Source: Bacteroidota bacterium
GTDB lineage: Bacteria; Bacteroidota; Ignavibacteria; UBA10030; UBA8401
Length of the DNA: 64,000 nucleotides
Reading direction: 5' to 3'
Assembly: GCA_008933835.1 (NCBI GenBank)
Contig: WBUG01000004.1
Span: 27,005 to 91,004, forward strand
Both the position numbers and the translations under genes were made by a program. Within the stretch, counting starts at the first letter, position 1, and each line of letters begins with the position of its first letter. The notes below the pieces were generated by a model that saw nothing but the letters and a program-made list of their open reading frames with translations, did no database searches and was not told the DNA's origin. This document shows positions 44,280 through 63,448 of this stretch, one piece after another.

Positions 44280-45158
44280 ATGGCCTCGGAACATGCACAT
44301 CTGGAGCAGGAGATACGCAAGCTCGCGTCGTTCGTCCCCATTTCGGCGACGGTCGCGAACATCATCCGTTATGAACTGAAGGGCGAAGCGGCCAACCGGC
44401 GTCTCCGCTCCCACATCGAAGCGGACAACGCCATCACCGTGATGGTGCTGCAGGCGGCGAACTCCTCCTTCTACGGGTTCCGCGGCCAGGTCGTCACGGT
44501 GGCCCACGCCGTGATGCTCATCGGGTTCGAAGAGATCAGCCGCATCGTACTGATGCACGAGCTCCGGCAGCGCATCATCGCGCTGAATCCGGCCCAGCAG
44601 GAATCCGTGAAGCGGCTCTGGATCCATAGCATCACCACCGCGACCCTCTCCCGCATCCTCTGCCGCGAACTCGGTCTGCACACCAGCGGCGAAGAGTTCA
44701 CCGGCGGACTCCTCCACGACCTTGGCAAGCTCTTCTTCATCCAGAACGTACCGGACCTCGCCGGCCGCATCGCGCAGCGCATCGCGGAAGGAACGGACGA
44801 CGTCGAAGCCGAACGCGAGATCGCCCGTTGGCCGCACACCGACATCGGCGCGCTGCTGGGACTGCAATGGGACCTTCCGCCGGTGCTCTGCGACGTGATG
44901 AAACTGCATCATCTTTCCGACCCTCTCGAGGAGGGACAGTCCATCGTCGCCGTCATCCGGCTGGCGGACCTGTTCTGCGAGAAGTGGGGATACGGCATCG
45001 GTGAAGGGAATGCGCCGGACCGCATCTCGGAAGACCCCTGCTGGGACCACCTGCGGCGGAGCGTCGCCGGATTGAACGGCCGTACGGCCGAAGAGATCGA
45101 AGGGGTCGTGAAGCCGGAATTCGACACCCATACGGAGTTCCGCGAACTCTTCCATTGA
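44280..45158 (+). CDS. Stand-alone HDOD-domain signalling protein
   Basis: HDOD hallmarks: ...VLQAANSSFYGF..., LLHDLGKL. Confidence 0.7.
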   Translation: MASEHAHLEQEIRKLASFVPISATVANIIRYELKGEAANRRLRSHIEADNAITVMVLQAANSSFYGFRGQVVTVAHAVMLIGFEEISRIVLMHELRQRIIALNPAQQESVKRLWIHSITTATLSRILCRELGLHTSGEEFTGGLLHDLGKLFFIQNVPDLAGRIAQRIAEGTDDVEAEREIARWPHTDIGALLGLQWDLPPVLCDVMKLHHLSDPLEEGQSIVAVIRLADLFCEKWGYGIGEGNAPDRISEDPCWDHLRRSVAGLNGRTAEEIEGVVKPEFDTHTEFRELFH

Positions 45159-45172
45159 CGGAGGCTACGGCC

Positions 45173-46042
45173 ATGCGCGACATCCGCAACGAGATCCAGA
45201 ACATCGGCGACGTCATCCCCATCCCCTCCATGGTGACGATGATCCTCACCCAGACGCTGACGGGAGAGACCGCGGGACGCAAGCTCATCGCCATCATCGA
45301 GTCCGACGCGTCGCTCACCGCCATGGTGCTCCGGGCCGCCAATTCCGCCTTCTACGGCATCCGCTCCGGCGTCTCCACCGTCTCGCACGCCGTGATGGTG
45401 CTCGGTCACCAGGAGATCAACCGGCTGGTCCTCACCTACGAACTGAAGCAGCGCATCCTCTCCCTCAACACCGAGCAGCGTGATTTCCTGAACCGTCTCT
45501 GGATCCACAGCGTGTCGGTCGCCACCGCCTCCCGCATCGTCGCCAAAGCGGCCGGTGTGCGGACCTCGGGCGAGGAGTTCACCGCCGGTCTTCTGCACGA
45601 TATGGGGAAGATCGTGCTCGTCCAGCATTTCCCCGACATGTTCGTCCGCGCCGCCGCCATGGGGACCGACCTCGGTCTTCCCGACGTGCAGGCGGAAGAA
45701 CAGGTCTTCGCCATATCGCATGACGAGGTCGGCGGCATGCTGGCCGAACAATGGAACCTCCCTGCCTCCATCGCCGATACGATGCGGTTCCACCACCGAT
45801 GCGGTTCCGCGACCGCCGACGTTCCGCTCACCTGCGTCGTCCGGCTTGCTGACCTCCTGGTCGAACGCTGGGGTATCGGCATCGACGAAGGGACCGCCGA
45901 CGGCGCCGTCACGGACAATGAGTGCTGGAAGATCCTGTCGGACCGTTTCCCCTCCATTGCGTCGGTCGACGTTCAGGAGTTCGAAGAGGGGGTCCGCATG
46001 GAATTCGAGAACAATCAGGCCTTCTCCGAACTCTTCACCTGA
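45173..46042 (+). CDS. Stand-alone HDOD-domain signalling protein (paralog)
   Basis: Same architecture (VLRAANSAFYGI, LLHDMGKI); GGAGG RBS before ATG 45173. Confidence 0.7.
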   Translation: MRDIRNEIQNIGDVIPIPSMVTMILTQTLTGETAGRKLIAIIESDASLTAMVLRAANSAFYGIRSGVSTVSHAVMVLGHQEINRLVLTYELKQRILSLNTEQRDFLNRLWIHSVSVATASRIVAKAAGVRTSGEEFTAGLLHDMGKIVLVQHFPDMFVRAAAMGTDLGLPDVQAEEQVFAISHDEVGGMLAEQWNLPASIADTMRFHHRCGSATADVPLTCVVRLADLLVERWGIGIDEGTADGAVTDNECWKILSDRFPSIASVDVQEFEEGVRMEFENNQAFSELFT

Positions 46043-46196
46043 TCCGACCGCAATACCGCCCTTGTCCGGAACGTCACGTCACGTATTCCGGACCGTTCTC
46101 TCCGCATCCTCACAAGCCACGTGCATAAAATTAGCCACCCGCATCTTTCTGCCGTTAAATTTCGCCGGATTTCCTCTTTTTTTTCAGGCACGGTAT

Positions 46197-46222
46197 TTGT
46201 CGAAATAGTCCCAGACTATAAT
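46197..46222 (+). promoter_or_regulatory. AT-rich sigma-70-like promoter candidate (TTGTCG / TATAAT) ahead of the sugar-nucleotide and GT genes
   Basis: The only AT-rich patch in about 2 kb; perfect TATAAT 14 nt upstream of the ATG; -35 and spacing are weak. Confidence 0.3.
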
Positions 46223-46235
46223 ATGACGAGTACCG

Positions 46236-47306
46236 ATGACCATTGCGACCATCACCGGCATCCGTCCGGACTTCATCCGGATGAGCAAAGTGTTCGAACA
46301 GCTGGACAAGCACTTCGAACACATCATGATCCATACGGGCCAGCACTACGACGATGAGCTGAGCCGCATCTTCTTCCGCGAACTGAAGATACGGCAGCCC
46401 GATTACACCCTCGACACGGGGCGGAACAGCCGGAACCACTACGAACAGCTCTCCTACCTCTCCACAGAGGTCATCGGACTGCTCAAACGGCATCGCATCG
46501 ATCCCGCGATGGTGCTCTTCCTCGGCGATTCGAACTCGGCGCTCGCCAGCGTGCCGCTGTTCAAGGAGGGGTACCGCATCGGCCATATCGAAGGGGGCAT
46601 GCGCTCCTACGACCGCCGGATGCCGGAGGAGGTGAACCGCGTGTTGTGCGATTACGTCTCGGACCAGGTGTTCGTCTACACGAAACTGTACAAGGAACGG
46701 CTGGTCCGCGAGAACAAGGATCCCCGCCGTATCCACGTGGTCGGCAACACCATCGTGGAAGTGGTGCGGCAGTACATGCCCACCGGCCGCCGGAGCCGCG
46801 ACTTCATCCTGGCGGACATCCACCGCAGCGAGAACCTCGCCGACGCCCGGCAGTTCGCCCACATTCTGAACTTTTTAGAACGGCTCGGAAAGAAGACCGG
46901 ACTGCCGGTCCGTCTCGTCCGCTTCCGCCGGGCGGAACGGCTCATCGAAGAGCACGGACTCCTCGACGACAAGAAACACATCGAACTCGCCGGACCGTAC
47001 GGTTTTCTGCAGTACCTCGACCTCCAGTACAACGCCTACGGCGTGGTCTCCGATTCCGGTACCTGTCAGGAAGAATGCCCGCTGCTGGGAGTTCCGGTGG
47101 CGGTGCCGAGGAACGCGACCGAACGGCCGGAATCGGTGGAGAACGGCAACAGCATCCTGCTGGGCGAAACGGCCCCGGTCGAGACCATGGTGAAGAAGAC
47201 CCTCAGGTTCTTCGAAGGATATTCCGTCACGCCGGCGCAGCGGCGCTGGCTCGGGAACGGACGAACGTCGGAAACGATCGCGAACATACTCAGAAAGGAA
47301 CTGTGA
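46236..47306 (+). CDS. UDP-N-acetylglucosamine 2-epimerase (non-hydrolysing, WecB/NeuC-like)
   Basis: N-terminal ITGIRPDFIRMSKVF...HTGQHYD; GT-B-like epimerase fold. Confidence 0.75.
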   Translation: MTIATITGIRPDFIRMSKVFEQLDKHFEHIMIHTGQHYDDELSRIFFRELKIRQPDYTLDTGRNSRNHYEQLSYLSTEVIGLLKRHRIDPAMVLFLGDSNSALASVPLFKEGYRIGHIEGGMRSYDRRMPEEVNRVLCDYVSDQVFVYTKLYKERLVRENKDPRRIHVVGNTIVEVVRQYMPTGRRSRDFILADIHRSENLADARQFAHILNFLERLGKKTGLPVRLVRFRRAERLIEEHGLLDDKKHIELAGPYGFLQYLDLQYNAYGVVSDSGTCQEECPLLGVPVAVPRNATERPESVENGNSILLGETAPVETMVKKTLRFFEGYSVTPAQRRWLGNGRTSETIANILRKEL

Positions 47307-47307
47307 C

Positions 47308-48273
47308 ATGAAGAACGTGCTCATCGTCGGAGGGGCCGGCTACGTCGGCGGCGCCATCACGGACCTCGTGGCGGACCAGAAGTACAACGTCCGCGTGTAC
47401 GACTCTCTGCTGTACGAGGATTCGTACCGTAAAGAGATCGACTTCGTCTTCGGCGACGTCCGCGATACCGAACGGCTCCGCCCGCACCTCCGGTGGGCCG
47501 ATACCGTCGTCTGGCTCGCCGCCATCGTCGGCGACGGCGCCTGCCAGCTCAAGCCCGAACTCACCGTGGCGGTGAACGAGGAGCCGCTGAAATGGCTGGC
47601 GGCCAACTATGACGGCCGCATCATCTTCATGTCCACCTGCTCCGTGTACGGAGCGCAGGACCGGGAACTGGACGAAGATTCTCCGACCAGTCCGCTCTCC
47701 CTCTACGCCTCCACCAAGCTTCGGGCGGAATCGTTCCTGAAACAGAAGAACGCGATGATCTTCCGGCTGGGGACCCTCTTCGGCGTGGGGGACCTGTACG
47801 CCCGGATCCGGATGGACCTCGTCGTCAACGCCCTGACCGTCCGCGCTCACACGCAGGGGATGCTGAGCGTGTTCGGCGGCGACCAGTTCCGTCCGCTCCT
47901 CCACGTCAAGGACGTGGCCCGCGCCGTGGTCCAGAACCTCCGGTCCGAGCACACGGGCATCTTCAATCTCCACCGTCAGAACGTCCGCATCGTGGACCTG
48001 GCGTACCAGGTGCGGAACCACTTCCCGGACTGCATCATCGAACGGTCCGAGATGCCGTTCCAGGACACCCGGAACTACCGCGTGAGCAGCCGGAAGGCGC
48101 GCGAGGTGTTCGGGTTCAACCCCGTCCATTCCATCGACGACGGCATCATGGAACTGAAGTTCCTCGTCGAAACGGGCCGCATCAAGGACGTGAACGCGAA
48201 ACGGTACTCCAATCAGGCGTTCCTCTCCACCCAGCTGCAGGAGGAGAAGAAGGCGGAACTCGTGGCGGCATGA
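47308..48273 (+). CDS. NAD-dependent sugar epimerase/dehydratase (SDR family)
   Basis: MKNVLIVGGAGYVGG Rossmann motif; YxxxK region. Confidence 0.75.
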   Translation: MKNVLIVGGAGYVGGAITDLVADQKYNVRVYDSLLYEDSYRKEIDFVFGDVRDTERLRPHLRWADTVVWLAAIVGDGACQLKPELTVAVNEEPLKWLAANYDGRIIFMSTCSVYGAQDRELDEDSPTSPLSLYASTKLRAESFLKQKNAMIFRLGTLFGVGDLYARIRMDLVVNALTVRAHTQGMLSVFGGDQFRPLLHVKDVARAVVQNLRSEHTGIFNLHRQNVRIVDLAYQVRNHFPDCIIERSEMPFQDTRNYRVSSRKAREVFGFNPVHSIDDGIMELKFLVETGRIKDVNAKRYSNQAFLSTQLQEEKKAELVAA

Positions 48274-48719
48274 CCATGAACGACGAACCTCGGCTCATCA
48301 AAGGGGGCATCGCGGTGGACGACCGCGGCTCCGTCAGTTTCACCAACGACTTCCACTTCGAAGGCGTGAAGCGGTACTACATGATCCGGAACCACCGGCA
48401 GGGATTCATCCGCGCGTGGCACGGTCACCGGTTCGAAGGGAAGTACTTCACGGTCGTCAAAGGCTCCGCCCTCGTCTGCGGCGTGAAGATCGACGATTGG
48501 GCGAACCCGTCGCGAAGCCTGCCGGTGCACCGGTACGTCCTGACGGACATCGCCCCTTCGGTCCTCTACCTGCCGGGCGGCTACGCCAACGGCGAGATGT
48601 CGCTCACCGAAGATGCGCAGATCATGGTCTTCTCGACCTCGACACTGCAGGAGAGCGTCAACGATGACGTGCGGTGGGACCAGAACCACTGGAATCCCTG
48701 GACGATCGAATCACGATAG
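48270..48719 (+). CDS. WxcM/FdtA-like cupin (sugar 3,4-ketoisomerase-like)
   Basis: About 149 aa with an RAWHGHR...VVKGSALV cupin core; ATGA overlap with the upstream gene. Confidence 0.5.
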   Translation: MTMNDEPRLIKGGIAVDDRGSVSFTNDFHFEGVKRYYMIRNHRQGFIRAWHGHRFEGKYFTVVKGSALVCGVKIDDWANPSRSLPVHRYVLTDIAPSVLYLPGGYANGEMSLTEDAQIMVFSTSTLQESVNDDVRWDQNHWNPWTIESR

Positions 48720-48727
48720 GAGACGGT

Positions 48728-49564
48728 ATGGAATCGGTTGCGGTCATCGGCGCGGGCGGCATGCTCGGATACGCCGTTTCGGAGTTCTTCGCGCAGCGCG
48801 GGTACGGTGTGCGGCGCATCACCCGGAAGGAGTACGACATCACGAAGCACCCGTTCGCGGCGCTCGAGCGGCTTCTCGCGGACGTGAACGTCGTCATCAA
48901 CTGCGCCGGCGTCATCAAACCGCAGATCGCGGCGAACAGCACGGAGGACGTCATGCGGGTCAACGCGGTCTTCCCGCGCAACCTCGCGACCTTTTGCAAA
49001 GGGATGAACATCAAGTGCTTCCACGTCACGACGGACTGCGTCTACTCCGGTTCGAAGGGCCGGTACAGCGAGGACGACGTGTTCGACGCCGAGGACCTGT
49101 ACGGACTCTCCAAGAACGCCGGCGAACCGATGAACTGCATGACGCTCCGCACCTCCATCATCGGCGAGGAACGGGGACAGTCGCGCTCCCTCGTGGAATG
49201 GGCCCGCAGCCAGCAGGGGAACGGGGTGAACGGGTTCGTCAATCACTTCTGGAACGGCGTCACCACGCTCCACCTCGCCGAGGTCATCGAGAAGATCATC
49301 CGGCACGACATGTACACCGAGGGGATCTACCATCTGCATTCCCCGAACGCGCTCTCCAAGAAGGAACTGCTCGAAGCCATCGACATGGTGTACGAGCTCG
49401 GCCTGACCGTCCGTCCGGCCGAGGCGCCGCAGTTCTGCGACCGCACCCTCGGCAGCATCTACTCGTTCAGCACGCTGCTGTGCACCAAGACCATCCAGAT
49501 GCAGCTCTTCGAGATGAAGGAGTTCTTCGAACTGGCGAACGCCCCGAGCCTGGCAGAACTGTGA
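48728..49564 (+). CDS. RmlD-like NAD(P)-dependent sugar-nucleotide reductase/epimerase
   Basis: MESVAVIGAGGMLG Rossmann N-terminus and RmlD-like size; start moved to ATG 48728. Confidence 0.6.
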   Translation: MESVAVIGAGGMLGYAVSEFFAQRGYGVRRITRKEYDITKHPFAALERLLADVNVVINCAGVIKPQIAANSTEDVMRVNAVFPRNLATFCKGMNIKCFHVTTDCVYSGSKGRYSEDDVFDAEDLYGLSKNAGEPMNCMTLRTSIIGEERGQSRSLVEWARSQQGNGVNGFVNHFWNGVTTLHLAEVIEKIIRHDMYTEGIYHLHSPNALSKKELLEAIDMVYELGLTVRPAEAPQFCDRTLGSIYSFSTLLCTKTIQMQLFEMKEFFELANAPSLAEL

Positions 49565-49615
49565 CCCTGCCGGGCACCGCTCCCGTCCGCCGCCACGACA
49601 TCCACTGAGGAATCC

Positions 49616-52600
49616 ATGTTCTTCCGACGATCCGCCGAACGCCCCGACACCTTTTTCGTCTCCCGCGAGCTCTTCCTCGATGCCGCCCGGCTGTTCATCC
49701 GGCCCGCGGCCACCGTGGCGGACATCGGCTGCGGCATCCGTCCGCAGCGGTACATCGTTCCGCAGACGCATTACTGCGTCGACGCACACCGGCAGTACCT
49801 CGAACACTACCGGCAGCGGGGCGCCGGATTCGCCGGAACGGACTACGTCTTCATCAACGCCCTGTGGGGAGATGCCCTCAACGATCCTCGGCTGGCGGAC
49901 GTGGAGACCATCTTCGCCCTGGACGTGATCGAGCATATCGAGAAGGAGGAGGGGAAGCGGCTGCTGGAACGGACCGTCGCCGCGGCCAAGGAGCAGGTGG
50001 TCATCTTCACCCCGCTGGGCTTCGTGCCGCAGCACCATGAGGACGGGAAGGACGCCTGGGGTCTCGACGGCGGGAAATGGCAGGAACATCTCTCCGGCTG
50101 GCTGCCGGAGGAGTTTGCGGGGGACTGGACGTTCCTCGTCTGCGAGGATTTCCACACCCACGACAACATGCAGCACCGGCATGAGAAACCGGTCGGTGCC
50201 TTCTTCGCGTTCCTCAACAAGCGGGTACCTCCTCCGGCTCCTTCGCCGGACCTCTGTTTCCGGTTCACCGGTCTCGGCGATATCGCGGCCGATGCCGAAA
50301 CGCTCATCAGTCTGGCGAACCAGCGGAGCGGCGGCTGGGAAGCGGTCGTCAGCGACGGCGTTCCCGGAGACGAACTCCGCCATCTCGTCGAGGCGCTCTC
50401 CACCCGTTCATCCTCCTTCCAGCACCGGAACGACGGCCAGTACCGAACGACGGCCCCGACGGTCATCCGCCTGGCGGCGGGGGACCGTCTGTTGCCCGAC
50501 GCCGTCGACACCGTCCGCGCGTCGTTGACCGATACGGCCGGTGAATCGGTGGTGATCTTCACGGACCGCACGCCGGAACCGGGCGGTTCGCTGAAGCGCT
50601 CCGTCCAGCAGACCAGAACGGTTCCGGCGGGATTCGCCGCCCCGGCGATGATGTACGAAGACCTGACACGCCGCGGCTTCACGGCGATGCCGAGAAGCGT
50701 CGCCGAAAGGGTCGAATCGCGTCCTCTGCAGTTCCTGCAGACCGTCAAGGCCGAAGCCCTCTTCCGGGCGATGCCGGTACCGGCACGGATCGTGGAACAG
50801 GCGGTGCTGCAACCGGCCGCCATCGATGCAGATGCCGCCCGTTATGTTCGCATCATGGAATACACCTGGCTGCTGCACCGGTGGATGCGCAATGTGAGCT
50901 TCTCCGAAGCGTACCGCGCGGCGGATATCGATTCTCCTGACGGCAGTCAATCGTTCATTCAGTACTTCTTCGACGGTGCGACGGACGAAGGGAGTCCCGT
51001 CCACAACGCCCTCATCTGGGACGATTACATCGCCTGGCTGACCGCCGGTTTGGCGTCGCTCAACCGGGGGACCAAGAAGCGCATCCTGCAGCACGGCCGG
51101 AAGGTCTTCTCGTCCCTCCGGAACCTCCGTCCGATGTTCGAGCGGTATCATGCCTTCTTTTCGCGGCCGGACTTCGCCGTGCCGGCCGCGGCACGCGCCG
51201 TACCGGTCCCGGTTCCCGCCGACCGGAAGGAGGATGCAGAATACACCGCACTGCTCCACCGTCACATCGAACGGCGTCTCAAGGAGTCCGACCACGACGG
51301 GGCGCAGCTGGCGGTCGAGTTCCTCGTCCGTGCCACCGGAACGCTGGACAGCGCCGTGCTGAACCGTTTCGCAGAATCGGCGATGGTGAACGGCAACCTC
51401 CGCTCCCTGCGTGCGGTGGTCGAACGGCTCGGCGCCTTCGCGCAGCTGTCCGACGCCGGGAAGGCGGCGAGTCTGGCGGCCGGAGACGCTCCGCCGGAGT
51501 CGGGAATCGCGTCCATCGGTGATCCGGTCATCCGCGAGAACCTGCGGCGACATCTCGCCGGCGCCGCCATGCCGTTCGTGACCGACGACATCTCCGCCTG
51601 GACGTGCGATGCGGACGTGCATCGGAACGTGATGGTCCACTCGGTGAAGGCCTCCTGCCGGGAGTGCGGAACCCCGCTGCAGCGCACCGTCACGCTGCCC
51701 ATCGGCGGCGCACCCGGGAACGCCCCCGTGCTCTGCCACTCCTGCGCCGCGCCGTACACCCTTACGGACCGGCTCTTCCGGGAATGGGTCGAACGGCGGA
51801 ACGCCGCGCTGCCGGCCGCACCGCCGGTCCGCGCTTCGGGCCCCCGCGTGGCGCTGGTGATGCGCTATTCGAGCGTCATCAGCGGCGGCGTGAACATGAT
51901 CTTCCAGTACGCGGAATGGCTCCGCGAACTCGGCTGCACCGTCACCGTCCATTCCAACGAACCGAACTCGCCCCTCCGGAAGTTCACCGGCACCTTCAGC
52001 ATGGTGAAGAACGCCGGCGAGGTCCCCGCCGGGAAGTACGACGCCGTCTTCTGCATGTGCGCCGCGGACGTCCCGGTGATGCTGCAGAAGTATCCGAAGG
52101 AACGGGTCGCCCTCATCTGTCAGGGATACGAGGGGTATCACTACGGCCACACCTATGAGGAGCTCCGTGCGGACAAGTACATCTTCGACGAGATCCATGC
52201 ACTTCCGGCGGCGAAGTTCGCCGTCTCTCGCCATCTCACGCATCTCTTCGCGGAGAAGTTCGGCCAGCAGGCGTACTACATCCCCAACGGCACGGACCGG
52301 TCCGTGTTCCGTCCGGACCTGAGCATACGCCGAACGTCCCCTTCCGTACTGTTCGTCGGCAATCCGTACCAGCAGCTGAAGGGGGCCGATATGCTCCTTT
52401 CGGCCCTCTCATCGCTCCAGGCGAGCCGGTACGCGATGCCCGGCCTGACCCTCCATATCGCCATCGGAGGGGGGGCGGAGAAGATGGACCACCGCATCCA
52501 GACCGACCGGTTCGCGGTGCAGTACCATGTGGGGCTCGGCCGGAAGGAGATGGCCGCGCTGATGAACAGCGTCGACCTCGTCGTCAACACGTCGTGGTAC

Positions 52601-54502
52601 GAAGGATTCTCCCTGCCGATGCTCGAGGCGATGGCGTGCGGCACGCCGGTCATCACCACGCGCAACATGGGGGCGGAGAGCTTCTGCGAGCACGGGAAGA
52701 ACGCGTTCGTCGTTCCGTACGGCGACGTCTCCGGACTCGCCACCGCGATGCTCGCCGTGCTCAGCGGCGCTGAAGACCTCGCCCCGATGCTGCGCGAGGC
52801 GCAGAAGACCGCCGATGAGTATTCCACGGAGCGTTCGGTCCGCGCATTCGTGAACGAGACGGAACGGTTCCTCGGCGTCTCGTTCTCGCGGAGCCGGGTC
52901 GAACCGCTTGTCCGGCGTGCGGCGCATGCCGCTCCGTCGTCCGCGCGCGACCGCTCCGACCGTCCGAAGTTCACCGTGCTCGTGCCGACCTACAATCAGG
53001 CGGGGTACATCCCCGATACGCTCGACAGCCTGCGCCGTCAGACGGTGGAGGACTGGGAGGCGGTGGTGGTGAACGACGGCTCCACGGACAACACCCGCCG
53101 CGTCATCGAGCGGTACGCCCTGGCGGACGACCGCATCCGGACCTTCCATAAATCGAACGGCGGCGTCGCGTCCGCGCTCAACGAGGCGCTCCGTCAGGCA
53201 CGCGGCGAATGGATCCTCTGGCTCTCGTCCGACGACCTCTTTGAGGCGGACAAGCTGAAGGTCCACGAACGCCATTTCGCCGCCCACCCGGAGGCGCGAT
53301 TCTTCTACACCAACTACAGTCTGCTCTACCAGCAGACGCAGCAGAAGGTCCCCGGGTATCCCGGCATCGCCGCGGACGAGGACCGGGTGCTGAGCTTCTT
53401 CTACACCAACTACATCAACGGCATCAGCATCTGCATCCACCGCTCGGTCTTCTCGTCGGTCGGCTTCTTCAACGAGATCCTCCGCGATGGTCAGGACTAC
53501 GATATGTGGCTGCGCATCGCCCGTCAGTTTCCGTTGCAGTACATCGACGCCCGGACCTGCACGTACCGTGTCCACCCGGAGCAGGGCGCCAGCAAGTTCC
53601 CCGAGGCGGGCATCTACGATTCGGCGCTGTCGTGCGCGCAGTTCCTCAACACCCATCCGTACGCCGCCATCTTTCCGAAGCTCGATCCGGCGGACCCGGT
53701 CTCGGTGGACACGGCGGTGAAGAAGACCTTCTCCATCGTGATGGACCAGAACTCCTTCATCAACAAGCTCGGGTTCGGCCCGCTCCTCATCGACCGGCTG
53801 CACGAATGGGTCTCCGCCGGTTCGCCCCCCGGATACCGCACCGAACTGAACGCCAAGATCCGGCAGTACATCGTGGCCGTCCTGGGACAGGAACAGTCCG
53901 AGCCGGTGCGGGAGATGTTCGCGACGCTCTACAACGCCGGAACGGACGATTTCCGCTACCGTCCCCGCGACGTCTTCGCGCATGCGCACCGCTTCATCCT
54001 CGAACGGAAGCGGACCGTTGCGCCGGCCGAGGCGGAGAAGTACGACCGGTACATGAAACGGTTCGATGCCATCGTCGCGCTCCGGACCGAGGGACGGAAG
54101 CATGTGGCGCTGGCGGTACAGGCGATGGAGCGCCGGTCGTACGACGAAGCGCTCCGGCACATCGCCGCGGCGGAAGGGGCTGACCTGCACGACGTGCAGG
54201 AAGAACTGAGCGTGATGAAGGGGTGTGCACACCTCGGTCTGCAGGACCTCCCGAAGGCGCGGGAGGCGTTCGAAGAGACCCTTGCACGGAATCCCGAATC
54301 GTCCGAAGCGTGTGCCGGCCTCGGCGAGGTCTTCTTCCTGGCCGGCATGGACCGGGAGTCCAAGACGATGTTCGAATGGGCGGTCCGGTACGATGCGTCG
54401 AACCAGAGTGCGATGAACGGACTGTGCCGCGCCAATACGGAGCTCGGACTCCCCGAGGACGACAATGCTCTCCGGACGGTATCGGAGGAGGTGCCCGCAT
54501 GA
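49616..54502 (+). CDS. Giant fusion protein: class-I SAM methyltransferase + unknown ~500-aa region + GT4 + GT2 + C-terminal TPR
   Basis: MTase motif I VADIGCGIRPQ and post-motif II ALDVIEHIEKEEGKRLL; GT4 signature EGFSLPMLEAMACGTPVITT; GT2 signature FTVLVPTYNQAGYIPDTLDSLRRQT...NDGSTDNT...SSDD; TPR-like C-terminus. Confidence 0.7.
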   Translation: MFFRRSAERPDTFFVSRELFLDAARLFIRPAATVADIGCGIRPQRYIVPQTHYCVDAHRQYLEHYRQRGAGFAGTDYVFINALWGDALNDPRLADVETIFALDVIEHIEKEEGKRLLERTVAAAKEQVVIFTPLGFVPQHHEDGKDAWGLDGGKWQEHLSGWLPEEFAGDWTFLVCEDFHTHDNMQHRHEKPVGAFFAFLNKRVPPPAPSPDLCFRFTGLGDIAADAETLISLANQRSGGWEAVVSDGVPGDELRHLVEALSTRSSSFQHRNDGQYRTTAPTVIRLAAGDRLLPDAVDTVRASLTDTAGESVVIFTDRTPEPGGSLKRSVQQTRTVPAGFAAPAMMYEDLTRRGFTAMPRSVAERVESRPLQFLQTVKAEALFRAMPVPARIVEQAVLQPAAIDADAARYVRIMEYTWLLHRWMRNVSFSEAYRAADIDSPDGSQSFIQYFFDGATDEGSPVHNALIWDDYIAWLTAGLASLNRGTKKRILQHGRKVFSSLRNLRPMFERYHAFFSRPDFAVPAAARAVPVPVPADRKEDAEYTALLHRHIERRLKESDHDGAQLAVEFLVRATGTLDSAVLNRFAESAMVNGNLRSLRAVVERLGAFAQLSDAGKAASLAAGDAPPESGIASIGDPVIRENLRRHLAGAAMPFVTDDISAWTCDADVHRNVMVHSVKASCRECGTPLQRTVTLPIGGAPGNAPVLCHSCAAPYTLTDRLFREWVERRNAALPAAPPVRASGPRVALVMRYSSVISGGVNMIFQYAEWLRELGCTVTVHSNEPNSPLRKFTGTFSMVKNAGEVPAGKYDAVFCMCAADVPVMLQKYPKERVALICQGYEGYHYGHTYEELRADKYIFDEIHALPAAKFAVSRHLTHLFAEKFGQQAYYIPNGTDRSVFRPDLSIRRTSPSVLFVGNPYQQLKGADMLLSALSSLQASRYAMPGLTLHIAIGGGAEKMDHRIQTDRFAVQYHVGLGRKEMAALMNSVDLVVNTSWYEGFSLPMLEAMACGTPVITTRNMGAESFCEHGKNAFVVPYGDVSGLATAMLAVLSGAEDLAPMLREAQKTADEYSTERSVRAFVNETERFLGVSFSRSRVEPLVRRAAHAAPSSARDRSDRPKFTVLVPTYNQAGYIPDTLDSLRRQTVEDWEAVVVNDGSTDNTRRVIERYALADDRIRTFHKSNGGVASALNEALRQARGEWILWLSSDDLFEADKLKVHERHFAAHPEARFFYTNYSLLYQQTQQKVPGYPGIAADEDRVLSFFYTNYINGISICIHRSVFSSVGFFNEILRDGQDYDMWLRIARQFPLQYIDARTCTYRVHPEQGASKFPEAGIYDSALSCAQFLNTHPYAAIFPKLDPADPVSVDTAVKKTFSIVMDQNSFINKLGFGPLLIDRLHEWVSAGSPPGYRTELNAKIRQYIVAVLGQEQSEPVREMFATLYNAGTDDFRYRPRDVFAHAHRFILERKRTVAPAEAEKYDRYMKRFDAIVALRTEGRKHVALAVQAMERRSYDEALRHIAAAEGADLHDVQEELSVMKGCAHLGLQDLPKAREAFEETLARNPESSEACAGLGEVFFLAGMDRESKTMFEWAVRYDASNQSAMNGLCRANTELGLPEDDNALRTVSEEVPA

Positions 54503-55752
54503 ACCCGTCCGCCTCCCGCCGGCGCCCGACCATCGCGCTGTGCATGATCGTGAAGAACGAGGAGCGCTACCTCCGCGGCTGCCTCGAATCCGCCCGGCCG
54601 TATGTGGACGAGATCGTCGTCGTGGACACCGGTTCCACCGACGCGACCGTCTCCATCGCCGAAGAGTTCGGCGCCGTCGTCCGGCATTTCGCCTGGAACG
54701 GGAATTTTTCCGACGCCCGCAACGAATCGCTCCGCAGCGCCTCGTCCGACTGGGTGCTGTACCTGGACGCCGACGAACGCCTTCTCACCGGCGATGCGCT
54801 CCGCGCCATCGATCCGCCGAAGAACGCCGGCGCGTACAACGTCTCCATCCGGAGCCGGCACATCCTCCCGAGCGGCGTGGTGGACCAGGTGAACCAGTAC
54901 CAGCGTTTCTTCCGGCGTTCACCCTCCGTCCGGTTCGAAGGGATGGTGCACGAACAGGTGATGCCGTCGGTGCTCCGGAGCGGGAAGAATATCCTTCCCA
55001 GCGCCGTCGTCATCGAACATCTCGGGTACGGTGAGAGTCTCGAGAAGATCATGCAGAAGTGCGACCGCAATGCGGAGCTGCTCCGCCGCCAGCTGGCGGC
55101 CAATCCGGACGACCACTACGCACGGTATCAGCTCGGCAATACGCTCGGCGTGATGCAACGCTACGACGAAGCGGAGCCCCACCTGCTGGCGGCGGTGGAG
55201 AAGGACCGGAACGCGAGCATCCGGGCATCGGCATGCAACATCCTCGTCGAGGTGGCGATGCACCGTCAGGATCTGGCGGCCGCCGAATCGTGGTGCCGTC
55301 GTTCCATCACGCTCGTGCCGGACCAGGTGATGGCGTACTGGTTCCTCTCCGGCATCCTCGCGTTCCGACACCGTTACGCGGAAGGGATCGATCTCCTCTC
55401 GACGATCAGGAAACAGGCAGGGAAAGAGACCGGTCTGGCGCACGACATGGCGCTGTCCGAACCGGAGTTGCAGCAGCGCGCCGCCCTTTGCTTTGAGGGA
55501 CTGGCGAACGACGCGATGACCTCCAAGGATATGGCCGGCGTGCAGGCGGCGGTGGGGGCGGCGGAAGCGTACGGCGTCCGGACGGTGAAGCTACAGACCG
55601 CCGGAGCACAGTCGGCCATGGCGCTGAACGACCTCCGCGTGGCGGCGGGGCGCATCGACTATGTCATCCGCCACCTGCCGGAAGACGCTGTCGTTCAAAA
55701 GGAGCGGTTCCTCGCTGTGAAGAAACGTATCGAAGCGTTGGAGCCCGTGTAG
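54499..55752 (+). CDS. GT2 glycosyltransferase with C-terminal TPR repeats
   Basis: IALCMIVKNEERYL...VVDTGSTD...FAWNGNFSDARNE...YLDADE (GT2, SunS/flagellin-GT-like); TPR C-terminus; ATGA overlap with the upstream gene. Confidence 0.7.
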   Translation: MNPSASRRRPTIALCMIVKNEERYLRGCLESARPYVDEIVVVDTGSTDATVSIAEEFGAVVRHFAWNGNFSDARNESLRSASSDWVLYLDADERLLTGDALRAIDPPKNAGAYNVSIRSRHILPSGVVDQVNQYQRFFRRSPSVRFEGMVHEQVMPSVLRSGKNILPSAVVIEHLGYGESLEKIMQKCDRNAELLRRQLAANPDDHYARYQLGNTLGVMQRYDEAEPHLLAAVEKDRNASIRASACNILVEVAMHRQDLAAAESWCRRSITLVPDQVMAYWFLSGILAFRHRYAEGIDLLSTIRKQAGKETGLAHDMALSEPELQQRAALCFEGLANDAMTSKDMAGVQAAVGAAEAYGVRTVKLQTAGAQSAMALNDLRVAAGRIDYVIRHLPEDAVVQKERFLAVKKRIEALEPV

Positions 55753-55833: not shown

Positions 55834-55849
55834 TGGCACGGTAATTGTC
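55834..55849 (+). promoter_or_regulatory. Sigma-54-like -24/-12 element (TGGCACG-N4-TTGT) upstream of flagellin copy 1
   Basis: TTGGCACGgtaaTTGTC has the GG-N10-G(T) spacing of RpoN promoters with one mismatch in -12 GC; no sigma-28 motif in this leader. Confidence 0.3.
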
Positions 55850-55943
55850 GGATAAGGACCTATAGTCGATTCACACCGTTCAGGGAAGAACGGTCCGTTC
55901 GTTGCGGCATGGATGCCATCACCGATCATTCTGTGAGGTCTAT

Positions 55944-56765
55944 ATGGCATTCTCGACCGGCGGTCGCATCAACACCAACATCGGTGCGGACCAGGCCTAC
56001 GCCGCCCTGAACGATATCACGCGCGATCTCGGAGTCCATCAGCTCCGGCTCGCGACCGGCAAGCGCATCAATTCCGCCTCCGACGACGCTTCGGGCTACG
56101 TCATTTCGAAGAAGATGGAGGGGCGCATCCGCGCGATGACCGCGGCGCTGGACAACGTCGGCGACGCGCAGAGCGTGTACGGCGTGGCCGAAGGGGCGCT
56201 GCAGACCATCGCCGACATCCTGACGACGATCCAGGAGAAGCAGACCCGCGCCGCGAACGGCGCGATGGGGACCGAAGAGAAATCGGCCATCGTGTCCGAG
56301 ATCAACTCGCTCCTCTCCGAGATCGACGACATCACCGGTCAGACGAAGTTCAACGGCACGACGCTCCTCTCCGGCGGATACGCACAGGGGTTCCAGGTGG
56401 GAGAGAGCGCGTCGAGCATCCTCACCGTCTCCTTCAATTCGGTCGACACCGCGGCCCTGCTGGGCGTGGCGGCCGGCTCCGTCACCACCTCCAACATCGG
56501 TTCCCTCACCGTCGAACAGGCCCTCTCTTCGATCAACACCGAGATCGGCAAGATCGGGGCGTACGTCAACCGGCTGCAGACCAAGGAATCGAACATCACC
56601 ACCGCCATCACGAACACCGAGGCGGCGAAGAGCCGCATCATGGACGCGGATGTCGCCAAGGAACAGATCTTCGCATCGAAGCTGCAGATCCTGCAGCAGA
56701 CGGCCACGGCCCAGCTGGCCCAGGCCAATGCGTCGCCGCAATCATTCTTATCTCTCTTCAAGTGA
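55944..56765 (+). CDS. fliC: Flagellin (copy 1 of 5)
   Basis: Conserved flagellin N-terminus (RINTNIGA...LRLATGKRINSASDDASGY) and C-terminus (DADVAKEQ...ILQQT..AQLAQAN.SPQ..LSLF); 273 aa. Confidence 0.9.
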   Translation: MAFSTGGRINTNIGADQAYAALNDITRDLGVHQLRLATGKRINSASDDASGYVISKKMEGRIRAMTAALDNVGDAQSVYGVAEGALQTIADILTTIQEKQTRAANGAMGTEEKSAIVSEINSLLSEIDDITGQTKFNGTTLLSGGYAQGFQVGESASSILTVSFNSVDTAALLGVAAGSVTTSNIGSLTVEQALSSINTEIGKIGAYVNRLQTKESNITTAITNTEAAKSRIMDADVAKEQIFASKLQILQQTATAQLAQANASPQSFLSLFK

Positions 56766-56858: not shown

Positions 56859-56885
56859 TCAAGAACCGCCGTGAGGTGCCGATAA
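56859..56885 (+). promoter_or_regulatory. Sigma-28 (FliA) promoter for flagellin 2
   Basis: TCAAGAAC-N11-GCCGATAA; -10 matches the GCCGATAA consensus perfectly. Confidence 0.6.
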
Positions 56886-56969: not shown

Positions 56970-57803
56970 ATGGCATTCTCAACAGGCGGCAGGATCAACA
57001 CCAACATCGGCGCGAACCAGGCGTACAGCGCGCTGAACACCATCAGCCGCGAGCTCGGCGTGCACCAGCTGCGTCTGGCCACCGGCAAGCGCATCAATTC
57101 CGCGGCGGACGACGCCTCCGGATACGTGATCTCCAAGAAGATGGAAGGACGCATGCGCTCGATGAGCGCCGCTCTGGACAACGTCGGCGACGCGCAGAGC
57201 GTGTACGGCGTGGCCGAAGGGGCGTATCAGACGGTCGCGGACATCCTGACCACCATCAAGGAGAAGCAGACCCGGGCGGCCAACGGCGCCATGGGAGGGG
57301 ACGAGAAGGACGCCATCGCGGCCGAGATCAACTCCCTCATGAACGAGATCACCGACATCGCCAACCAGACGAAGTTCAACGGCACCACGCTGCTCACCGG
57401 CGCCTCGAACTACTCCACCTCGTTCCAGGTCGGCGAAGCGTCGACGGACACGCTGACCGTGTCGTTCGCGAAGATCACCACCGCGTCCGGCGGACTGCTG
57501 TCGGTCGCCGCCGGTTCCGTGACCTCGGTGAACATCAGCGATCTGAGCGTCGATACGGCGTTGACCACCATCAACACCGAGATCGGGAAGATCGGTGCGC
57601 ACGTGAACCGGCTCCAGACCAAGGAGGCGAACATCACGACCGCCATCACCAACACCGAAGCCGCCAAGAGCCGCATCATGGACGCCGACGTCGCCAAGGA
57701 ACAGATCCTGGCGTCGAAGCTCTCCATCCTGCAGCAGACGTCCACGGCGCAGCTGGCCCAGGCCAACTCCTCGCCGCAGGCGTTCCTCTCGTTGTTTCGT
57801 TAA
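56970..57803 (+). CDS. fliC: Flagellin (copy 2 of 5)
   Basis: As copy 1; GGAGG RBS; 277 aa. Confidence 0.9.
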   Translation: MAFSTGGRINTNIGANQAYSALNTISRELGVHQLRLATGKRINSAADDASGYVISKKMEGRMRSMSAALDNVGDAQSVYGVAEGAYQTVADILTTIKEKQTRAANGAMGGDEKDAIAAEINSLMNEITDIANQTKFNGTTLLTGASNYSTSFQVGEASTDTLTVSFAKITTASGGLLSVAAGSVTSVNISDLSVDTALTTINTEIGKIGAHVNRLQTKEANITTAITNTEAAKSRIMDADVAKEQILASKLSILQQTSTAQLAQANSSPQAFLSLFR

Positions 57804-57963: not shown

Positions 57964-58788
57964 ATGGCATTCTCAACAGGCGGTAGGATCAACACCAACA
58001 TCGGCGCGAACCAGGCGTACAGCGCGCTGAACACCATCAGCCGCGAGCTCGGCGTGCACCAGCTGCGTCTGGCCACCGGCAAACGCATCAATTCCGCGGC
58101 GGACGACGCCTCCGGATACGTGATCTCCAAGAAGATGGAAGGACGCATGCGCTCGATGAGCGCCGCTCTGGACAACGTCGGTGACGCGCAGAGCGTCTAC
58201 GGCGTGGCCGAAGGGGCGTATCAGACGGTCGCGGACATCCTGACCACCGTCAAGGAGAAGCAGACCCGGGCGGCCAACGGCGCCATGGGCAGCGAGGAGA
58301 AGGACGCCATCGCGGCCGAGATCAACTCGCTGATGAGCGAGATCGACGACATCTCCAACCAGACGAAGTTCAACGGCACGACGCTGCTCTCCGGCACGGC
58401 GTACTCGAAGAGCTTCCAGGTCGGTGAAGGCTCGTCCGACACGCTCACGGTGGCGTTCTCGCTCGTCAGCGCCGGCGGACTGCTCGGCGTGGCGGCCGGT
58501 TCGGTCACCTCGGCCAACATCGCCAGCCTCACCGTCGATGCGGGTCTCACCACGGTGAACACCGAGATCGGAAAGATCGGTGCGCACGTGAACCGGCTCC
58601 AGACCAAGGAGTCGAACATCACGACGGCCATCACCAACACCGAGGCCGCGAAGAGCCGCATCATGGACGCCGACGTCGCCAAGGAACAGATCATGGCATC
58701 GAAGCTCTCCATCCTGCAGCAGACGTCCACGGCGCAGCTGGCCCAGGCCAACTCCTCGCCGCAGGCGTTCCTGTCGCTCTTCCGCTGA
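57964..58788 (+). CDS. fliC: Flagellin (copy 3 of 5)
   Basis: As above; 274 aa; no obvious sigma-28 motif upstream. Confidence 0.9.
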   Translation: MAFSTGGRINTNIGANQAYSALNTISRELGVHQLRLATGKRINSAADDASGYVISKKMEGRMRSMSAALDNVGDAQSVYGVAEGAYQTVADILTTVKEKQTRAANGAMGSEEKDAIAAEINSLMSEIDDISNQTKFNGTTLLSGTAYSKSFQVGEGSSDTLTVAFSLVSAGGLLGVAAGSVTSANIASLTVDAGLTTVNTEIGKIGAHVNRLQTKESNITTAITNTEAAKSRIMDADVAKEQIMASKLSILQQTSTAQLAQANSSPQAFLSLFR

Positions 58789-58892
58789 TAACAGCATGAC
58801 GCCCGGGCGGCGGTCCTGACCGGACCCCGCCCGGCGGATTCTGAACCCCGCCCCGAGGGCCGACCCCCGAGGGGAGGGGTGTTTTTTGTCCT

Positions 58893-58918
58893 CAAGATTC
58901 CTCCGGAAATGCCGATAC
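58893..58918 (+). promoter_or_regulatory. Sigma-28 (FliA) promoter for flagellin 4
   Basis: TCAAGATT-N11-GCCGATAC. Confidence 0.6.
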
Positions 58919-59925: not shown

Positions 59926-59952
59926 CTCAAGATTACCGGTACCGTGCCGATA
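59926..59952 (+). promoter_or_regulatory. Sigma-28 (FliA) promoter for flagellin 5
   Basis: TCAAGATT-N11-GCCGATAT. Confidence 0.6.
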
Positions 59953-60029: not shown

Positions 60030-60851
60030 ATGGCATTCTCAACAGGCGGCAGGATCAACACCAACATCGGCGCCAACCAGGCGTACGGTGCACTGAACAC
60101 CATCAGCCGCGAGCTCGGCGTGCACCAGCTGCGGCTGGCCACCGGCAAACGCATCAATTCCGCAGCGGATGACGCTTCGGGATACGTGATCTCCAAGAAG
60201 ATGGAAGGCCGCATTCGGTCCATGAGCGCAGCTCTGGACAACGTCGGCGACGCGCAGAGCGTCTACGGCGTGGCCGAAGGGGCGTATCAGACCATCGCGG
60301 ACATCCTCACCACCATCAAGGAGAAACAGACCCGGGCGGCCAACGGCGCCATGGGAGGGGACGAGAAGGACGCCATCGCGGCGGAGATCAACTCGCTGAT
60401 GAGCGAGATCAACGACATCTCCAACCAGACGAAGTTCAACGGAACGGCACTGCTCTCAGCGAGCTTCTCCACGTCGTTCCAGGTCGGCGACGGCACCTCG
60501 GACACGCTCTCCGTCTCGTTTGCGTCGGTCGGCGCCACCGGACTTCTCGGCGTGGCGGCCGGTTCGGTCACCTCGGCGAACATCTCGAGCCTGACGGTCG
60601 ACACCGGACTCACCACGGTGAACACCGAGATCGGGAAGATCGGCGCCAACGTCAACCGCCTCCAGACCAAGGAAGCGAACCTGACGACCGCCATCACCAA
60701 CACCGAAGCGGCGAAGAGCCGCATCATGGACGCCGACGTCGCGAAGGAACAGATCATGACGTCCAAGCTCTCCATCCTGCAGCAGACGTCGACGGCGCAG
60801 CTGGCCCAGGCCAACTCCTCGCCGCAGGCGTTCCTGTCGCTCTTCCGGTGA
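60030..60851 (+). CDS. fliC: Flagellin (copy 5 of 5)
   Basis: As above; 273 aa. Confidence 0.9.
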   Translation: MAFSTGGRINTNIGANQAYGALNTISRELGVHQLRLATGKRINSAADDASGYVISKKMEGRIRSMSAALDNVGDAQSVYGVAEGAYQTIADILTTIKEKQTRAANGAMGGDEKDAIAAEINSLMSEINDISNQTKFNGTALLSASFSTSFQVGDGTSDTLSVSFASVGATGLLGVAAGSVTSANISSLTVDTGLTTVNTEIGKIGANVNRLQTKEANLTTAITNTEAAKSRIMDADVAKEQIMTSKLSILQQTSTAQLAQANSSPQAFLSLFR

Positions 60852-60924: not shown

Positions 60925-61296
60925 ATGGGAGCGGATATGTTCGCGTACAAACAGCAGTCAGCCGAGACCGAAACGGGCGTGATGACCGGACCGGCGCCGT
61001 CGCTGGCCACCACGAGGTACCGGCGGGAAGACTCGATGAACCTCACTCCGGTGCAGGTCATCCAGCGGCTCTATGACGTCGCCATCATGGCCATCCGGAA
61101 GGACGACCGGGACCTGGCGCGCCGGGCCATCAACGAGCTCATCTCGGCGCTGAACTTCGAGCACCGCGAGGTCGCGCTCGGCCTCTTCAAGCTGTACGAT
61201 TACTCCAAGACGATGCTGCGCCAGGGGAAGAACGACGAAGCGCTCACCGTGCTCCTCGAACTCCGTTCCGCCTGGGTCGAAGCGTTCAAGCTCTGA
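60925..61296 (+). CDS. fliS: Flagellar export chaperone FliS (probable true start at ATG 60937)
   Basis: FliS-like core (LYDVAIMAIRKDDRDLARRAINELISALN...LFKLYDYSKTML...LLELRSAWVEA). Confidence 0.7.
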   Translation: MGADMFAYKQQSAETETGVMTGPAPSLATTRYRREDSMNLTPVQVIQRLYDVAIMAIRKDDRDLARRAINELISALNFEHREVALGLFKLYDYSKTMLRQGKNDEALTVLLELRSAWVEAFKL

Positions 61297-62748: not shown

Positions 62749-62777
62749 ACGGACGGACGGCGGCGGGATATCGCATC

Positions 62778-63444: not shown

Positions 63445-63448
63445 CACC

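Follow-up and report, generated by a model that had tools for sequence, protein, structure and literature searches.

The question raised by this locus is what a compact set of sugar-nucleotide and glycosyltransferase (GT) genes, one of them encoding a single polypeptide of 1628 amino acids (aa), is doing directly upstream of five tandem flagellin genes. The locus lies in what is here called the window, a 64-kb stretch (~64% GC) of contig WBUG01000004.1 (GCA_008933835.1) that was analysed as a whole and to which all positions refer. We propose that region 46187-55752 is probably a cytoplasmic flagellin O-glycosylation operon that, judging from its predicted proteins, would make a rare sugar and attach a short methylated chain. 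Its six + strand genes (46236-55752) are tightly packed; they abut or overlap at every junction (47306/47308, 48273/48270, 48719/48728, 49564/49616 and 54502/54499), and one operon is therefore indicated. The order is WecB-like 2-epimerase, short-chain dehydrogenase/reductase (SDR), cupin, RmlD-like reductase, the 1628-aa giant and a GT2-TPR protein, followed by the five flagellins. An earlier note on this DNA had listed four sugar genes, the giant, a second GT2-TPR protein and five flagellins; Pfam and NCBIfam scans recovered all of them, with corrected coordinates. The six island genes are:

46236..47306, + strand: UDP-GlcNAc (UDP-N-acetylglucosamine) 2-epimerase-like protein of the WecB/FnlC/WbvD type, 356 aa; PF02350 (Epimerase_2), 235.8 bits
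47308..48273, + strand: extended SDR, 321 aa; PF01370, 100 bits
48270..48719, + strand: small RmlC/FdtA-like cupin, 149 aa; PF00908 (dTDP_sugar_isom), 28.5 bits, and PF05523 (FdtA), 24.1 bits
48728..49564, + strand: RmlD-like 4-ketoreductase, 278 aa; PF04321, 85.9 bits
49616..54502, + strand: giant soluble multi-domain enzyme, 1628 aa; methyltransferase (MTase), decayed GT2, helical region, Zn ribbon, GT4, GT2 and TPR
54499..55752, + strand: GmaR/SunS-like GT2 plus TPR protein, 417 aa; PF00535, 72.1 bits, plus TPR matches

Two of these gene calls need a remark. At the position of the reductase, the longest open reading frame (ORF), 48613-49608, was rejected as an artefact: it is rich in Arg, lies in another frame and has no Pfam match. 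The reductase frame is ORF 48674-49564, with an ATG start at 48728 and a 278-aa product that agrees with independent gene calls in two other assemblies. The GT2-TPR gene starts at ATG 54499 and overlaps the stop codon of the giant gene as ATGA.

That the glycan is put on flagellin is well supported because the GT2-TPR protein is GmaR-like, the synteny with flagellin or FliD is conserved, the proteins are soluble, and genes for a lipid carrier or export are absent. Our bioinformatic analysis of the GT2-TPR protein suggests a candidate priming flagellin O-glycosyltransferase. Among solved structures the protein comes closest to the GT domain of GmaR (22ao; E 5.9e-32 over aa 8-200), and the peptide S-glycosyltransferase SunS ranks next in the PDB (E 6e-20; the NCBIfam model TIGR04195 SunS matches at 3.8e-24, under its cutoff). 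The DxD (DAD) and VDTGSTD motifs are intact, matches to TPR_20, TPR_16 and TPR_19 come after the GT domain (aa ~193-275, numbered on a longer ORF), and the gene ends 192 bp 5' of flagellin 1. GmaR transfers N-acetylglucosamine (GlcNAc) to flagellin and consists of GT and TPR domains, with the TPR thought to bind flagellin (PMC9638930). Like GmaR of Listeria monocytogenes, the window protein has a homologous GT domain, then TPRs, and adjoins short flagellins. GmaR is also bifunctional, acting as both flagellin O-GlcNAc transferase and MogR anti-repressor (PMC9638930), and the giant protein has a TPR region of its own and two intact GT modules, so one may ask if the GT2-TPR protein is chiefly a GmaR-like regulator (an anti-repressor or thermosensor) and the giant alone glycosylates flagellin, priming included. 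We consider this most improbable. The window protein is 417 aa long against 637 aa for GmaR, and only its GT domain (aa 8-200) matches GmaR; the GmaR chain outside the GT domain gives no PDB match at E<=0.01, the linker and anti-repressor domains being absent. No MogR-like gene was seen, and the catalytic motifs of the GT domain are kept.

The second line of evidence is genomic context. About 30 homologous giants (1100-2170 aa) were found in public data, mostly in Ignavibacteria, Melioribacter and 'Bacteroidota' metagenome-assembled genomes (MAGs). The gene order 2-epimerase, SDR, cupin, RmlD-like reductase, giant, GT2-TPR, flagellin, FliS, FliD is shared by the window and seven related loci (L006, L007, L008, L009, L011, L090 and L091), and a variant order in L003/L015 and L005 places FliD directly downstream of the giant gene; flhB and fliPQR are close by. 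Of the 11 related loci with readable flanks, 10 have the cassette directly beside flagellin or FliD, at 30-43% protein identity to the window; two other loci, L089 and L092, end right after the GT2-TPR gene. The earlier note had proposed searching related genomes for the same fusion next to flagellins, and the close family is indeed found there rather than consistently in O-antigen or capsule loci. In some related islands one or two additional genes, missing from the window, separate the reductase gene from the giant gene (L006 8311-9957, L090 4889-7999, L003 4794-7792 and L005 6260-7504); they encode a TPR plus class-I MTase protein (Methyltransf_25/11) or a Methyltransf_24 protein, the L006 product having a kinase-like N-terminus by eye, and the TPR-MTase genes are reminiscent of WbdD-type kinase-methyltransferase terminators. 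We found no literature on flagellin glycosylation in Ignavibacteria.

The third line is the cellular location implied by the proteins. All six island proteins are without a predicted membrane segment, and no Wzx, Wzy, ABC transporter or initiating transferase is encoded between the two HDOD genes on the 5' side and the flagellins. Soluble proteins without lipid-carrier, flippase or exporter genes fit direct protein glycosylation in the cytoplasm before type III export. The immediate neighbours are a GH43 (glycoside hydrolase) gene and the two HDOD genes on the 5' side, and the flagellins and FliS/FliD/FlaG/FliT on the 3' side. The flagellar genes and the putative promoter elements of the region are:

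46187..46202, + strand: sigma-54-like -24/-12 element GGCACGGTATTTGTCG, 33 nt 5' of the first ATG of the operon
55835..55850, + strand: second exact copy of the sigma-54-like element, GGCACGGTAATTGTCG, 93 nt 5' of flagellin 1
55944..56765, + strand: flagellin 1, 273 aa; Flagellin_N and Flagellin_C, and alignment
56970..57803, + strand: flagellin 2, 277 aa; sigma-28-type promoter TCAAGA-N13-GCCGATA at 56859-56884
57964..58788, + strand: flagellin 3, 274 aa
58983..59807, + strand: flagellin 4, 274 aa; sigma-28-type promoter at 58892-58917
60030..60851, + strand: flagellin 5, 273 aa; sigma-28-type promoter at 59927-59952
60925-61296, + strand: FliS-like protein
61318-62748, + strand: FliD
62745-63110, + strand: FlaG
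63094-63444, + strand: FliT-like protein

Flagellin 1 starts at 55944, not at 55902. Flagellins 2-5 are 79-81% identical to flagellin 1, and the Ser/Thr-rich central regions described in the earlier note are borne out: Ser and Thr make up 28-37% of the central 60 residues vs 20-21% overall, and SVTSANIASLTVD is found in flagellins 3 and 4. An exact 16-nt sequence, GGCACGGTAWTTGTCG, occurs at two sites only in the 64 kb, one before the operon and one before flagellin 1, which suggests co-regulation of the operon with the filament genes; its function as a promoter element is inferred from likeness to TGGCAC-N5-TTGC. With <=2 mismatches allowed, the generic sigma-54 pattern shows no enrichment in the window (10 occurrences vs 21.8 expected), and only the exact 16-mer pair is meaningful. 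Together with the sigma-28-type sites, the pair makes the five flagellin paralogues appear split between two sigma factors, flagellin 3 having neither a sigma-54-like nor a sigma-28-type site. In the low-GC relatives, sigma-28-like sites were seen only upstream of flagellin in L009 and L011, and no operon promoter is conserved. A 96-aa ORF without a Pfam match (63419-63709) comes after the FliT-like gene, and equivalent small ORFs of no assigned function come after FliD in L090 and L091. With the GmaR-like enzyme, the conserved synteny, the soluble proteins and the shared 16-nt motif, the flagellin glycosylation island of the earlier note holds up well.

It is proposed that the sugar is derived from a UDP-N-acetylhexosamine (UDP-HexNAc); we infer this substrate from the linked 2-epimerase. 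That enzyme scores 209.1 bits against TIGR00236 (wecB), just under the cutoff of 210.15, and only 43 bits against NeuC (cutoff 236), and it is clearly not NeuC. The SDR is a probable nucleotide-sugar C4-oxidase or epimerase, judging from its missing RmlB-type Asp-Glu dehydratase pair (STCSVYG...YASTK) and from its best PDB match, 6vo6 (E 1.6e-38, ~36% identity), which has likewise lost the pair. We take 6vo6 to be the Campylobacter C4-dehydrogenase Cj1427, an identity that a literature search for the identifier did not confirm. The cupin is probably a 3- and/or 5-epimerase acting on a 4-keto sugar; both of its Pfam scores are weak, just over the cutoffs, and its sole PDB match is RmlC (7pvi, E 3e-4). 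The reductase is not a true RmlD because it scores 83.6 bits against TIGR01214, whose cutoff is 224, and the WxcM and RmlD labels given to these two proteins hold at family level only. The Pfam and NCBIfam scans of the six island genes gave no Maf transferase and no pse, leg or neu gene, with PseB and LegB at background level, and no heptose-synthesis gene is present in the island.

Which sugar is made can be narrowed by the enzyme that the window lacks. Kneidinger et al. (2003) reportedly described the FnlABC/CapEFG and WbvB/WbvR/WbvD pathways to UDP-2-acetamido-2,6-dideoxy-L-hexoses. The RmlD-fold reductase and the non-hydrolysing 2-epimerase, both present in the window, correspond to the last two steps of these pathways; unlike them, the window is without a 4,6-dehydratase/5-epimerase of the FnlA/CapE/WbvB type (Polysacc_synt_2). 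No FnlA-like ORF exists in the window at E<=1e-20, and one is present in 43 of 57 related loci that combine the MTase described below with RmlD-like and 2-epimerase genes. Sorted by the alternative enzymes, 37 of the 57 have an FnlA/WbvB-type gene without SDR or cupin, 12 (including the window type) have SDR plus cupin without an FnlA-like gene, six are mixed and two have neither. The SDR-cupin pair and the FnlA-like genes are thus near-exclusive alternatives across genomes, which places the product near the group of N-acetyl-L-rhamnosamine (L-RhaNAc), N-acetyl-L-quinovosamine (L-QuiNAc) and N-acetyl-L-fucosamine (L-FucNAc). With SDR and cupin in place of the FnlA/WbvB-type enzyme, the product would therefore be an L-RhaNAc/L-QuiNAc-like sugar or its 6-hydroxy analogue; two forms, with C6 deoxygenated or the 6-OH kept, may both fit the gene set. 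The SDR, cupin and reductase follow the logic of the oxidise-epimerise-reduce pathway of Cj1427, Cj1430 and Cj1428 in the synthesis of Campylobacter heptoses (PMC10680097). That pathway acts on GDP-heptose; the 2-epimerase here points to a UDP-HexNAc instead, and the island has no heptose genes.

The giant protein is unusual in its domain content. It is not the product of a frameshift or an assembly fusion: two independent runs gave the same assembly, the encoded sequence matches KAB2925631.1 ('MAG: glycosyltransferase [Bacteroidetes bacterium]') exactly, and each of the five proteins in its 90% cluster has a length of 1628 aa. The earlier note had read it as a MTase dependent on S-adenosylmethionine (SAM), an uncharacterised region of ~500 aa, a GT4, a GT2 and TPR repeats. 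GT4, GT2 and TPR are confirmed by Pfam; the MTase fails at the Pfam threshold and is recovered by profile, AlphaFold and Foldseek; and the ~500-aa region, which is indeed present, can now be resolved into a decayed GT2, a helical region and a zinc ribbon. The seven modules are:

49616..50245, + strand: class-I SAM methyltransferase-fold domain, aa 1-210; motifs DIGCGIRPQ, DVIEH and DAWGLDGGKWQEHxSGWxPE
50246..50845, + strand: putative decayed GT2 (GT-A) module, aa ~211-410; from alignment with the intact GT2a of 17 homologues
50826..51565, + strand: all-helical linker, aa ~405-650; from DSSP of the AlphaFold model, predicted local distance difference test (pLDDT) mostly 50-80
51590..51766, + strand: beta-rich zinc-ribbon-like module, aa 659-717; C681xxC684 ... 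C707xxC710
51848..52885, + strand: GT4 (GT-B, retaining type), aa ~745-1090; PF13692, 89.9 bits, and PF00534, 72.9 bits
52952..53605, + strand: intact GT2 (GT-A, inverting type), aa ~1113-1330; PF00535, 109.2 bits (aa 1120-1309)
54053..54499, + strand: C-terminal TPR region, aa ~1480-1628; PF13432, 33.4-38.7 bits (aa 1534-1595), TPR_2 and TPR_19

The second module reads in the alignment as a GT2 that has lost its catalytic motifs: TGLGD stands in place of PTYNQ, SDGVPGD in place of NDGSTD, and AAGD, with 9 residues deleted, in place of SSDD. Residues 228-291 remain in register with the GT2 profile (hhalign, E 3.7e-4 vs 0.08-0.8 for shuffled sequences), and the AlphaFold model, which covers aa 1-760, has low confidence over aa ~211-410. 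The helical region that follows (aa 405-650) is modelled as a bundle of many short helices of 10-20 residues at pLDDT 40-80, and has low occupancy and identity in the family alignment. The cysteine pattern of the next module is kept in the family consensus, with weak hints of DZR and PknG_rubred. In the GT4, the Pfam span is aa 897-1062, a weak Glyco_transf_4 N-half begins at ~aa 756, and the EX7E motif (aa 996-1004) is intact; a 'GT4-conflict' match (PF20706) overlaps these ordinary GT4 matches and was not taken to indicate a defence system. The last GT module has intact NDGSTD and SSDD motifs and is of the 'GT2a' sequence type, sharing 37-48% identity with the GT2a of homologues. Across the family the modules run MTase-GT2a-linker-Zn-GT4-GT2b-TPR, with the TPR region kept at the C-terminus of the homologous giants. 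In an alignment of aa 741-1628 the GT2 of the window protein falls in register with the first GT2 of the homologues and is not collinear with them; the GT2b slot of the window protein holds a GT2a-type domain. The destroyed GT2a motifs together with this GT2a-type domain in the GT2b slot indicate that one module has died and that a domain of its type now occupies the second GT2 slot.

The N-terminal 210 residues are the best-conserved part of the giant family (40-60% identity), and several methods support a class-I SAM MTase fold of an uncurated family for them. In Pfam, the N-terminal 220 aa match only Methyltransf_12, with 18.8 bits against a 30-bit cutoff. Searched against the PDB, a profile of 16 family members recovers class-I MTases, among them the methyltransferase domain of Hen1 (E 2e-4); Methyltransf_11/25 (PF08241/PF13649) is matched by 14 of these 16 (best E 3e-6); the AlphaFold model has pLDDT 75-95 over aa 1-200; and the 44 Foldseek matches in the PDB at E<=1e-3 are essentially all SAM MTases, including RebM and KijD1, which act on sugars, and the O-antigen terminator WbdD, with one, 3iv6, titled putative alcohol dehydrogenase. 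The family is large and mostly stand-alone (190-400 aa): 175 confirmed loci in species-representative genomes of many phyla, and 205 clusters at E<=1e-30 among 1.84 billion representatives. In 57 of 78 loci, again from many phyla, an RmlD-like gene and a 2-epimerase gene are both found no more than 10 kb from the MTase gene, which argues for a sugar rather than a protein as the substrate.

FliB methylates flagellin lysines in Salmonella, and flagellin methylation reportedly occurs alongside glycosylation in some bacteria such as Aeromonas caviae. The MTase domain might on this precedent methylate flagellin itself (on lysines) or another protein, and several of its Foldseek matches are protein N-terminal methyltransferases (NTMT1). 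We regard this as very unlikely: most of the 57 linked loci are without flagellar genes, the weak curated matches of the domain in NCBIfam, Hen1 (sugar 2'-O) and MftM, both methylate sugar hydroxyls, and the MTase is fused to GTs in ~30 proteins. As most loci with the MTase and sugar module lack flagellar genes, the module would be a generic one that certain lineages have taken up for use on flagellin. Some Firmicutes loci of the MTase family do contain flagellin, MotA or GmaR-like genes (L033, L036, L041 and L019). The family also occurs in Patescibacteria, that is, the candidate phyla radiation (CPR; L022, L040, L044, L046, L076, L081 and L082), and in a Methanomassiliicoccales archaeon MAG (L030), and several of these CPR and archaeal loci, L022 and L040 among them, have the MTase gene adjoining RmlD-like and 2-epimerase genes. 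CPR bacteria are generally thought to be non-flagellated. The occurrence in CPR bacteria and an archaeal MAG suggests that the methylated-sugar module is much older and broader than its flagellar use. Other MTase-GT2/GT4 giants (889-2089 aa) are encoded in Proteobacteria-type genomes at L024 9914-16180 (Geobacter argillaceus), L027 6311-11818, L053 9251-13249 and L071 7988-10654, with RmlD-like, FnlA-like and 2-epimerase genes alongside; they probably act in polysaccharide loci.

Read together, the protein families suggest the following scheme. Four soluble enzymes would convert UDP-HexNAc to a rare epimerised L-type HexNAc: the SDR would oxidise C4, the cupin epimerise C3 and/or C5, the RmlD-like enzyme reduce C4 and the WecB-like enzyme invert C2. 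The GmaR-like GT2-TPR protein, by homology and synteny, would prime Ser/Thr residues in the central loop of each of the five flagellins, which is short and exposed. Extension would fall to the 1628-aa protein, which its C-terminal TPR probably anchors to flagellin or to the priming enzyme: the retaining GT4 and the inverting GT2 would lengthen the primer, the N-terminal domain would O-methylate a sugar, and the dead GT2 remnant may now act as a spacer. By capping the chain, methylation may restrict how long it grows ahead of flagellar type III export. We infer, as the earlier note did, a processive, methylated glycan on flagellin. A bolder version, which we put forward as doubtful, is that the giant is a self-contained polymerase-terminator that works on a protein without a lipid carrier, in which, once flagellin has been primed by the GmaR-like enzyme, GT4 and GT2 alternate in adding an undescribed L-HexNAc in the cytoplasm and the MTase caps the chain at a length that the flagellar type III channel can still export, the sugar being made by a Cj1427-like C4-oxidase route without 6-deoxygenation.

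Several points weigh against flagellin glycosylation by this operon or against parts of the scheme. The source is a MAG labelled 'Bacteroidetes bacterium', of an organism that is not in culture. The MTase domain of the window is under every curated threshold, the cupin assignment is weak (28.5 bits), and no coiled-coil ruler can be clearly recognised in the helical region. The low-GC relatives do not share the sigma-54-like motif. In one related locus, L001, the sole such case, the cassette is present but flagellar genes are absent within 10 kb. The MTase family with its RmlD/2-epimerase module is mostly found in non-flagellar, polysaccharide-like loci, CPR loci included, and the L024, L027, L053 and L071 fusions have no flagellar genes within 10 kb. 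These last observations suit an alternative in which the cassette makes a surface polysaccharide (O-antigen, capsule or exopolysaccharide), its position beside flagellin being due to chance or co-regulation, and in which the giant is a polymerase-terminator of the WbbB, ORF6 (O7) or WsaE type whose acceptor would be lipid-linked; the layout, with an MTase at the N-terminus, then a helical spacer and GT modules, does mirror the terminator-polymerases, and WbdD is among the Foldseek matches. Against this stand the absence, in or beside the island, of a phosphoglycosyl transferase, flippase, Wzy, Wzm/Wzt or ligase, the solubility of the proteins, a partner enzyme whose GmaR/SunS-like relatives are directed at proteins or peptides, and the position next to flagellin or FliD in all readable related loci except L001. 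We therefore consider a surface polysaccharide unlikely, and flagellin remains the preferred acceptor.

The surroundings of the island on the 5' side are of a different character. Tandem HDOD/HD-domain genes (44280-45158 and 45155-46042) lie immediately 5' of it, and the same pair precedes the island in two other assemblies of the organism (L086 and L087); the pair may encode regulators of motility. Further upstream, 33-44238 is a long + strand polysaccharide-utilisation run encoding two GH3 proteins, GH16, GH5, GH63-like, GH43 and rhamnosidase-like enzymes, as well as a LacI regulator, a TonB-dependent receptor, and CotH and other proteins with Por_Secre_tail domains of the type IX secretion system (T9SS). 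Taken with the 64% GC and the flagella, this gene content suggests a Rhodothermota-like MAG, or another one from the Fibrobacteres-Chlorobi-Bacteroidetes (FCB) group, more than classical Bacteroidetes.

To our knowledge, nearly all work on flagellin glycosylation concerns Proteobacteria, Campylobacterota and Firmicutes. The island points to a conserved and unusually consolidated system in flagellated bacteria of the FCB group, namely Ignavibacteria/Melioribacter-like bacteria and a 'Bacteroidota' MAG of 64% GC. In the giant enzyme, domain decay and replacement can be read directly from a dead GT2a and a GT2a-type module in the GT2b slot; the genomic partners of the MTase family point to one particular methylated rare sugar; and the exchange of an FnlA-type dehydratase for a Cj1427-like SDR plus cupin is a natural swap. 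If it is true that the methyl group caps the chain, chain-length control in the style of O-antigens would be linked to protein glycosylation. Current understanding is not overturned by these findings. What is new is the seven-module domain order with a dead GT2, an uncurated MTase family linked to RmlD-like and 2-epimerase genes, a Cj1427-like SDR and cupin where an FnlA-type dehydratase is usual, and the presence of such a system in bacteria of the FCB group.

The fusion of an MTase to GTs had been called undescribed in the earlier note, a claim that fails because such fusions are known in flagellin, S-layer and O-antigen systems (the C. difficile type-B GT2, WsaE and O7 ORF6), apart from the ~30 homologous giants. 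In Clostridioides difficile type-B flagellin modification, GT1 (CDR20291_0241) primes with GlcNAc and GT2 (CDR20291_0242), an enzyme with a PF00535 and a PF08241 domain, attaches two rhamnoses, which it is also proposed to methylate (PMC5207246). The window likewise has a candidate priming GT2-family enzyme beside flagellin and a second enzyme with GT2 and SAM-MTase domains, and shares with that system a short flagellin and, as its genes would suggest, a cytoplasmic process independent of a lipid carrier. It differs in that the giant is far larger, its seven modules adding GT4, a dead GT2, a zinc ribbon and TPR; in that its MTase is of another, uncurated family, set apart by description from CDR20291_0242; and in that the sugar cassette is not rmlABCD and the host belongs to the FCB group, not to Firmicutes. 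In Geobacillus stearothermophilus, WsaE combines an N-terminal MTase with two rhamnosyltransferase domains, and builds a repeat of L-sugars in the S-layer glycan, whose elongation stops when the terminal sugar is methylated (PMC2943079). The giant is, by description, similar in that an N-terminal MTase and a pair of intact GT modules are joined in a single chain; WsaE acts with a lipid-linked glycan, Wzm/Wzt export and an oligosaccharyltransferase, none of which is present in the window, where the acceptor is probably flagellin. Klebsiella O7 ORF6 consists of an MTase-kinase, a coiled coil and two GT2 modules, and Klebsiella O12 WbbB and E. coli O9a WbdD/WbdA follow the plan of terminator, coiled-coil ruler and polymerase (PMC11231755). 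These systems resemble the giant as large soluble proteins with an N-terminal terminator-type module (an MTase in O7 and O9a), a helical region and C-terminal GTs; they differ in having a kinase partner, a membrane-association helix and an ABC transporter that bears a carbohydrate-binding module, none of which was found in the window, and a true coiled-coil ruler, which is not evident in the giant. The window does not fit the context of the terminator-polymerases because it is without a lipid carrier and an ABC exporter; by analogy, its system would work like the C. difficile and Listeria type and resembles the terminator-polymerase giants in architecture only. GmaR, with its linker and anti-repressor domains, is the longer relative of the candidate priming enzyme, and the window system as a whole is most likely a larger version of the kind known from Listeria and Clostridioides difficile rather than a new kind.

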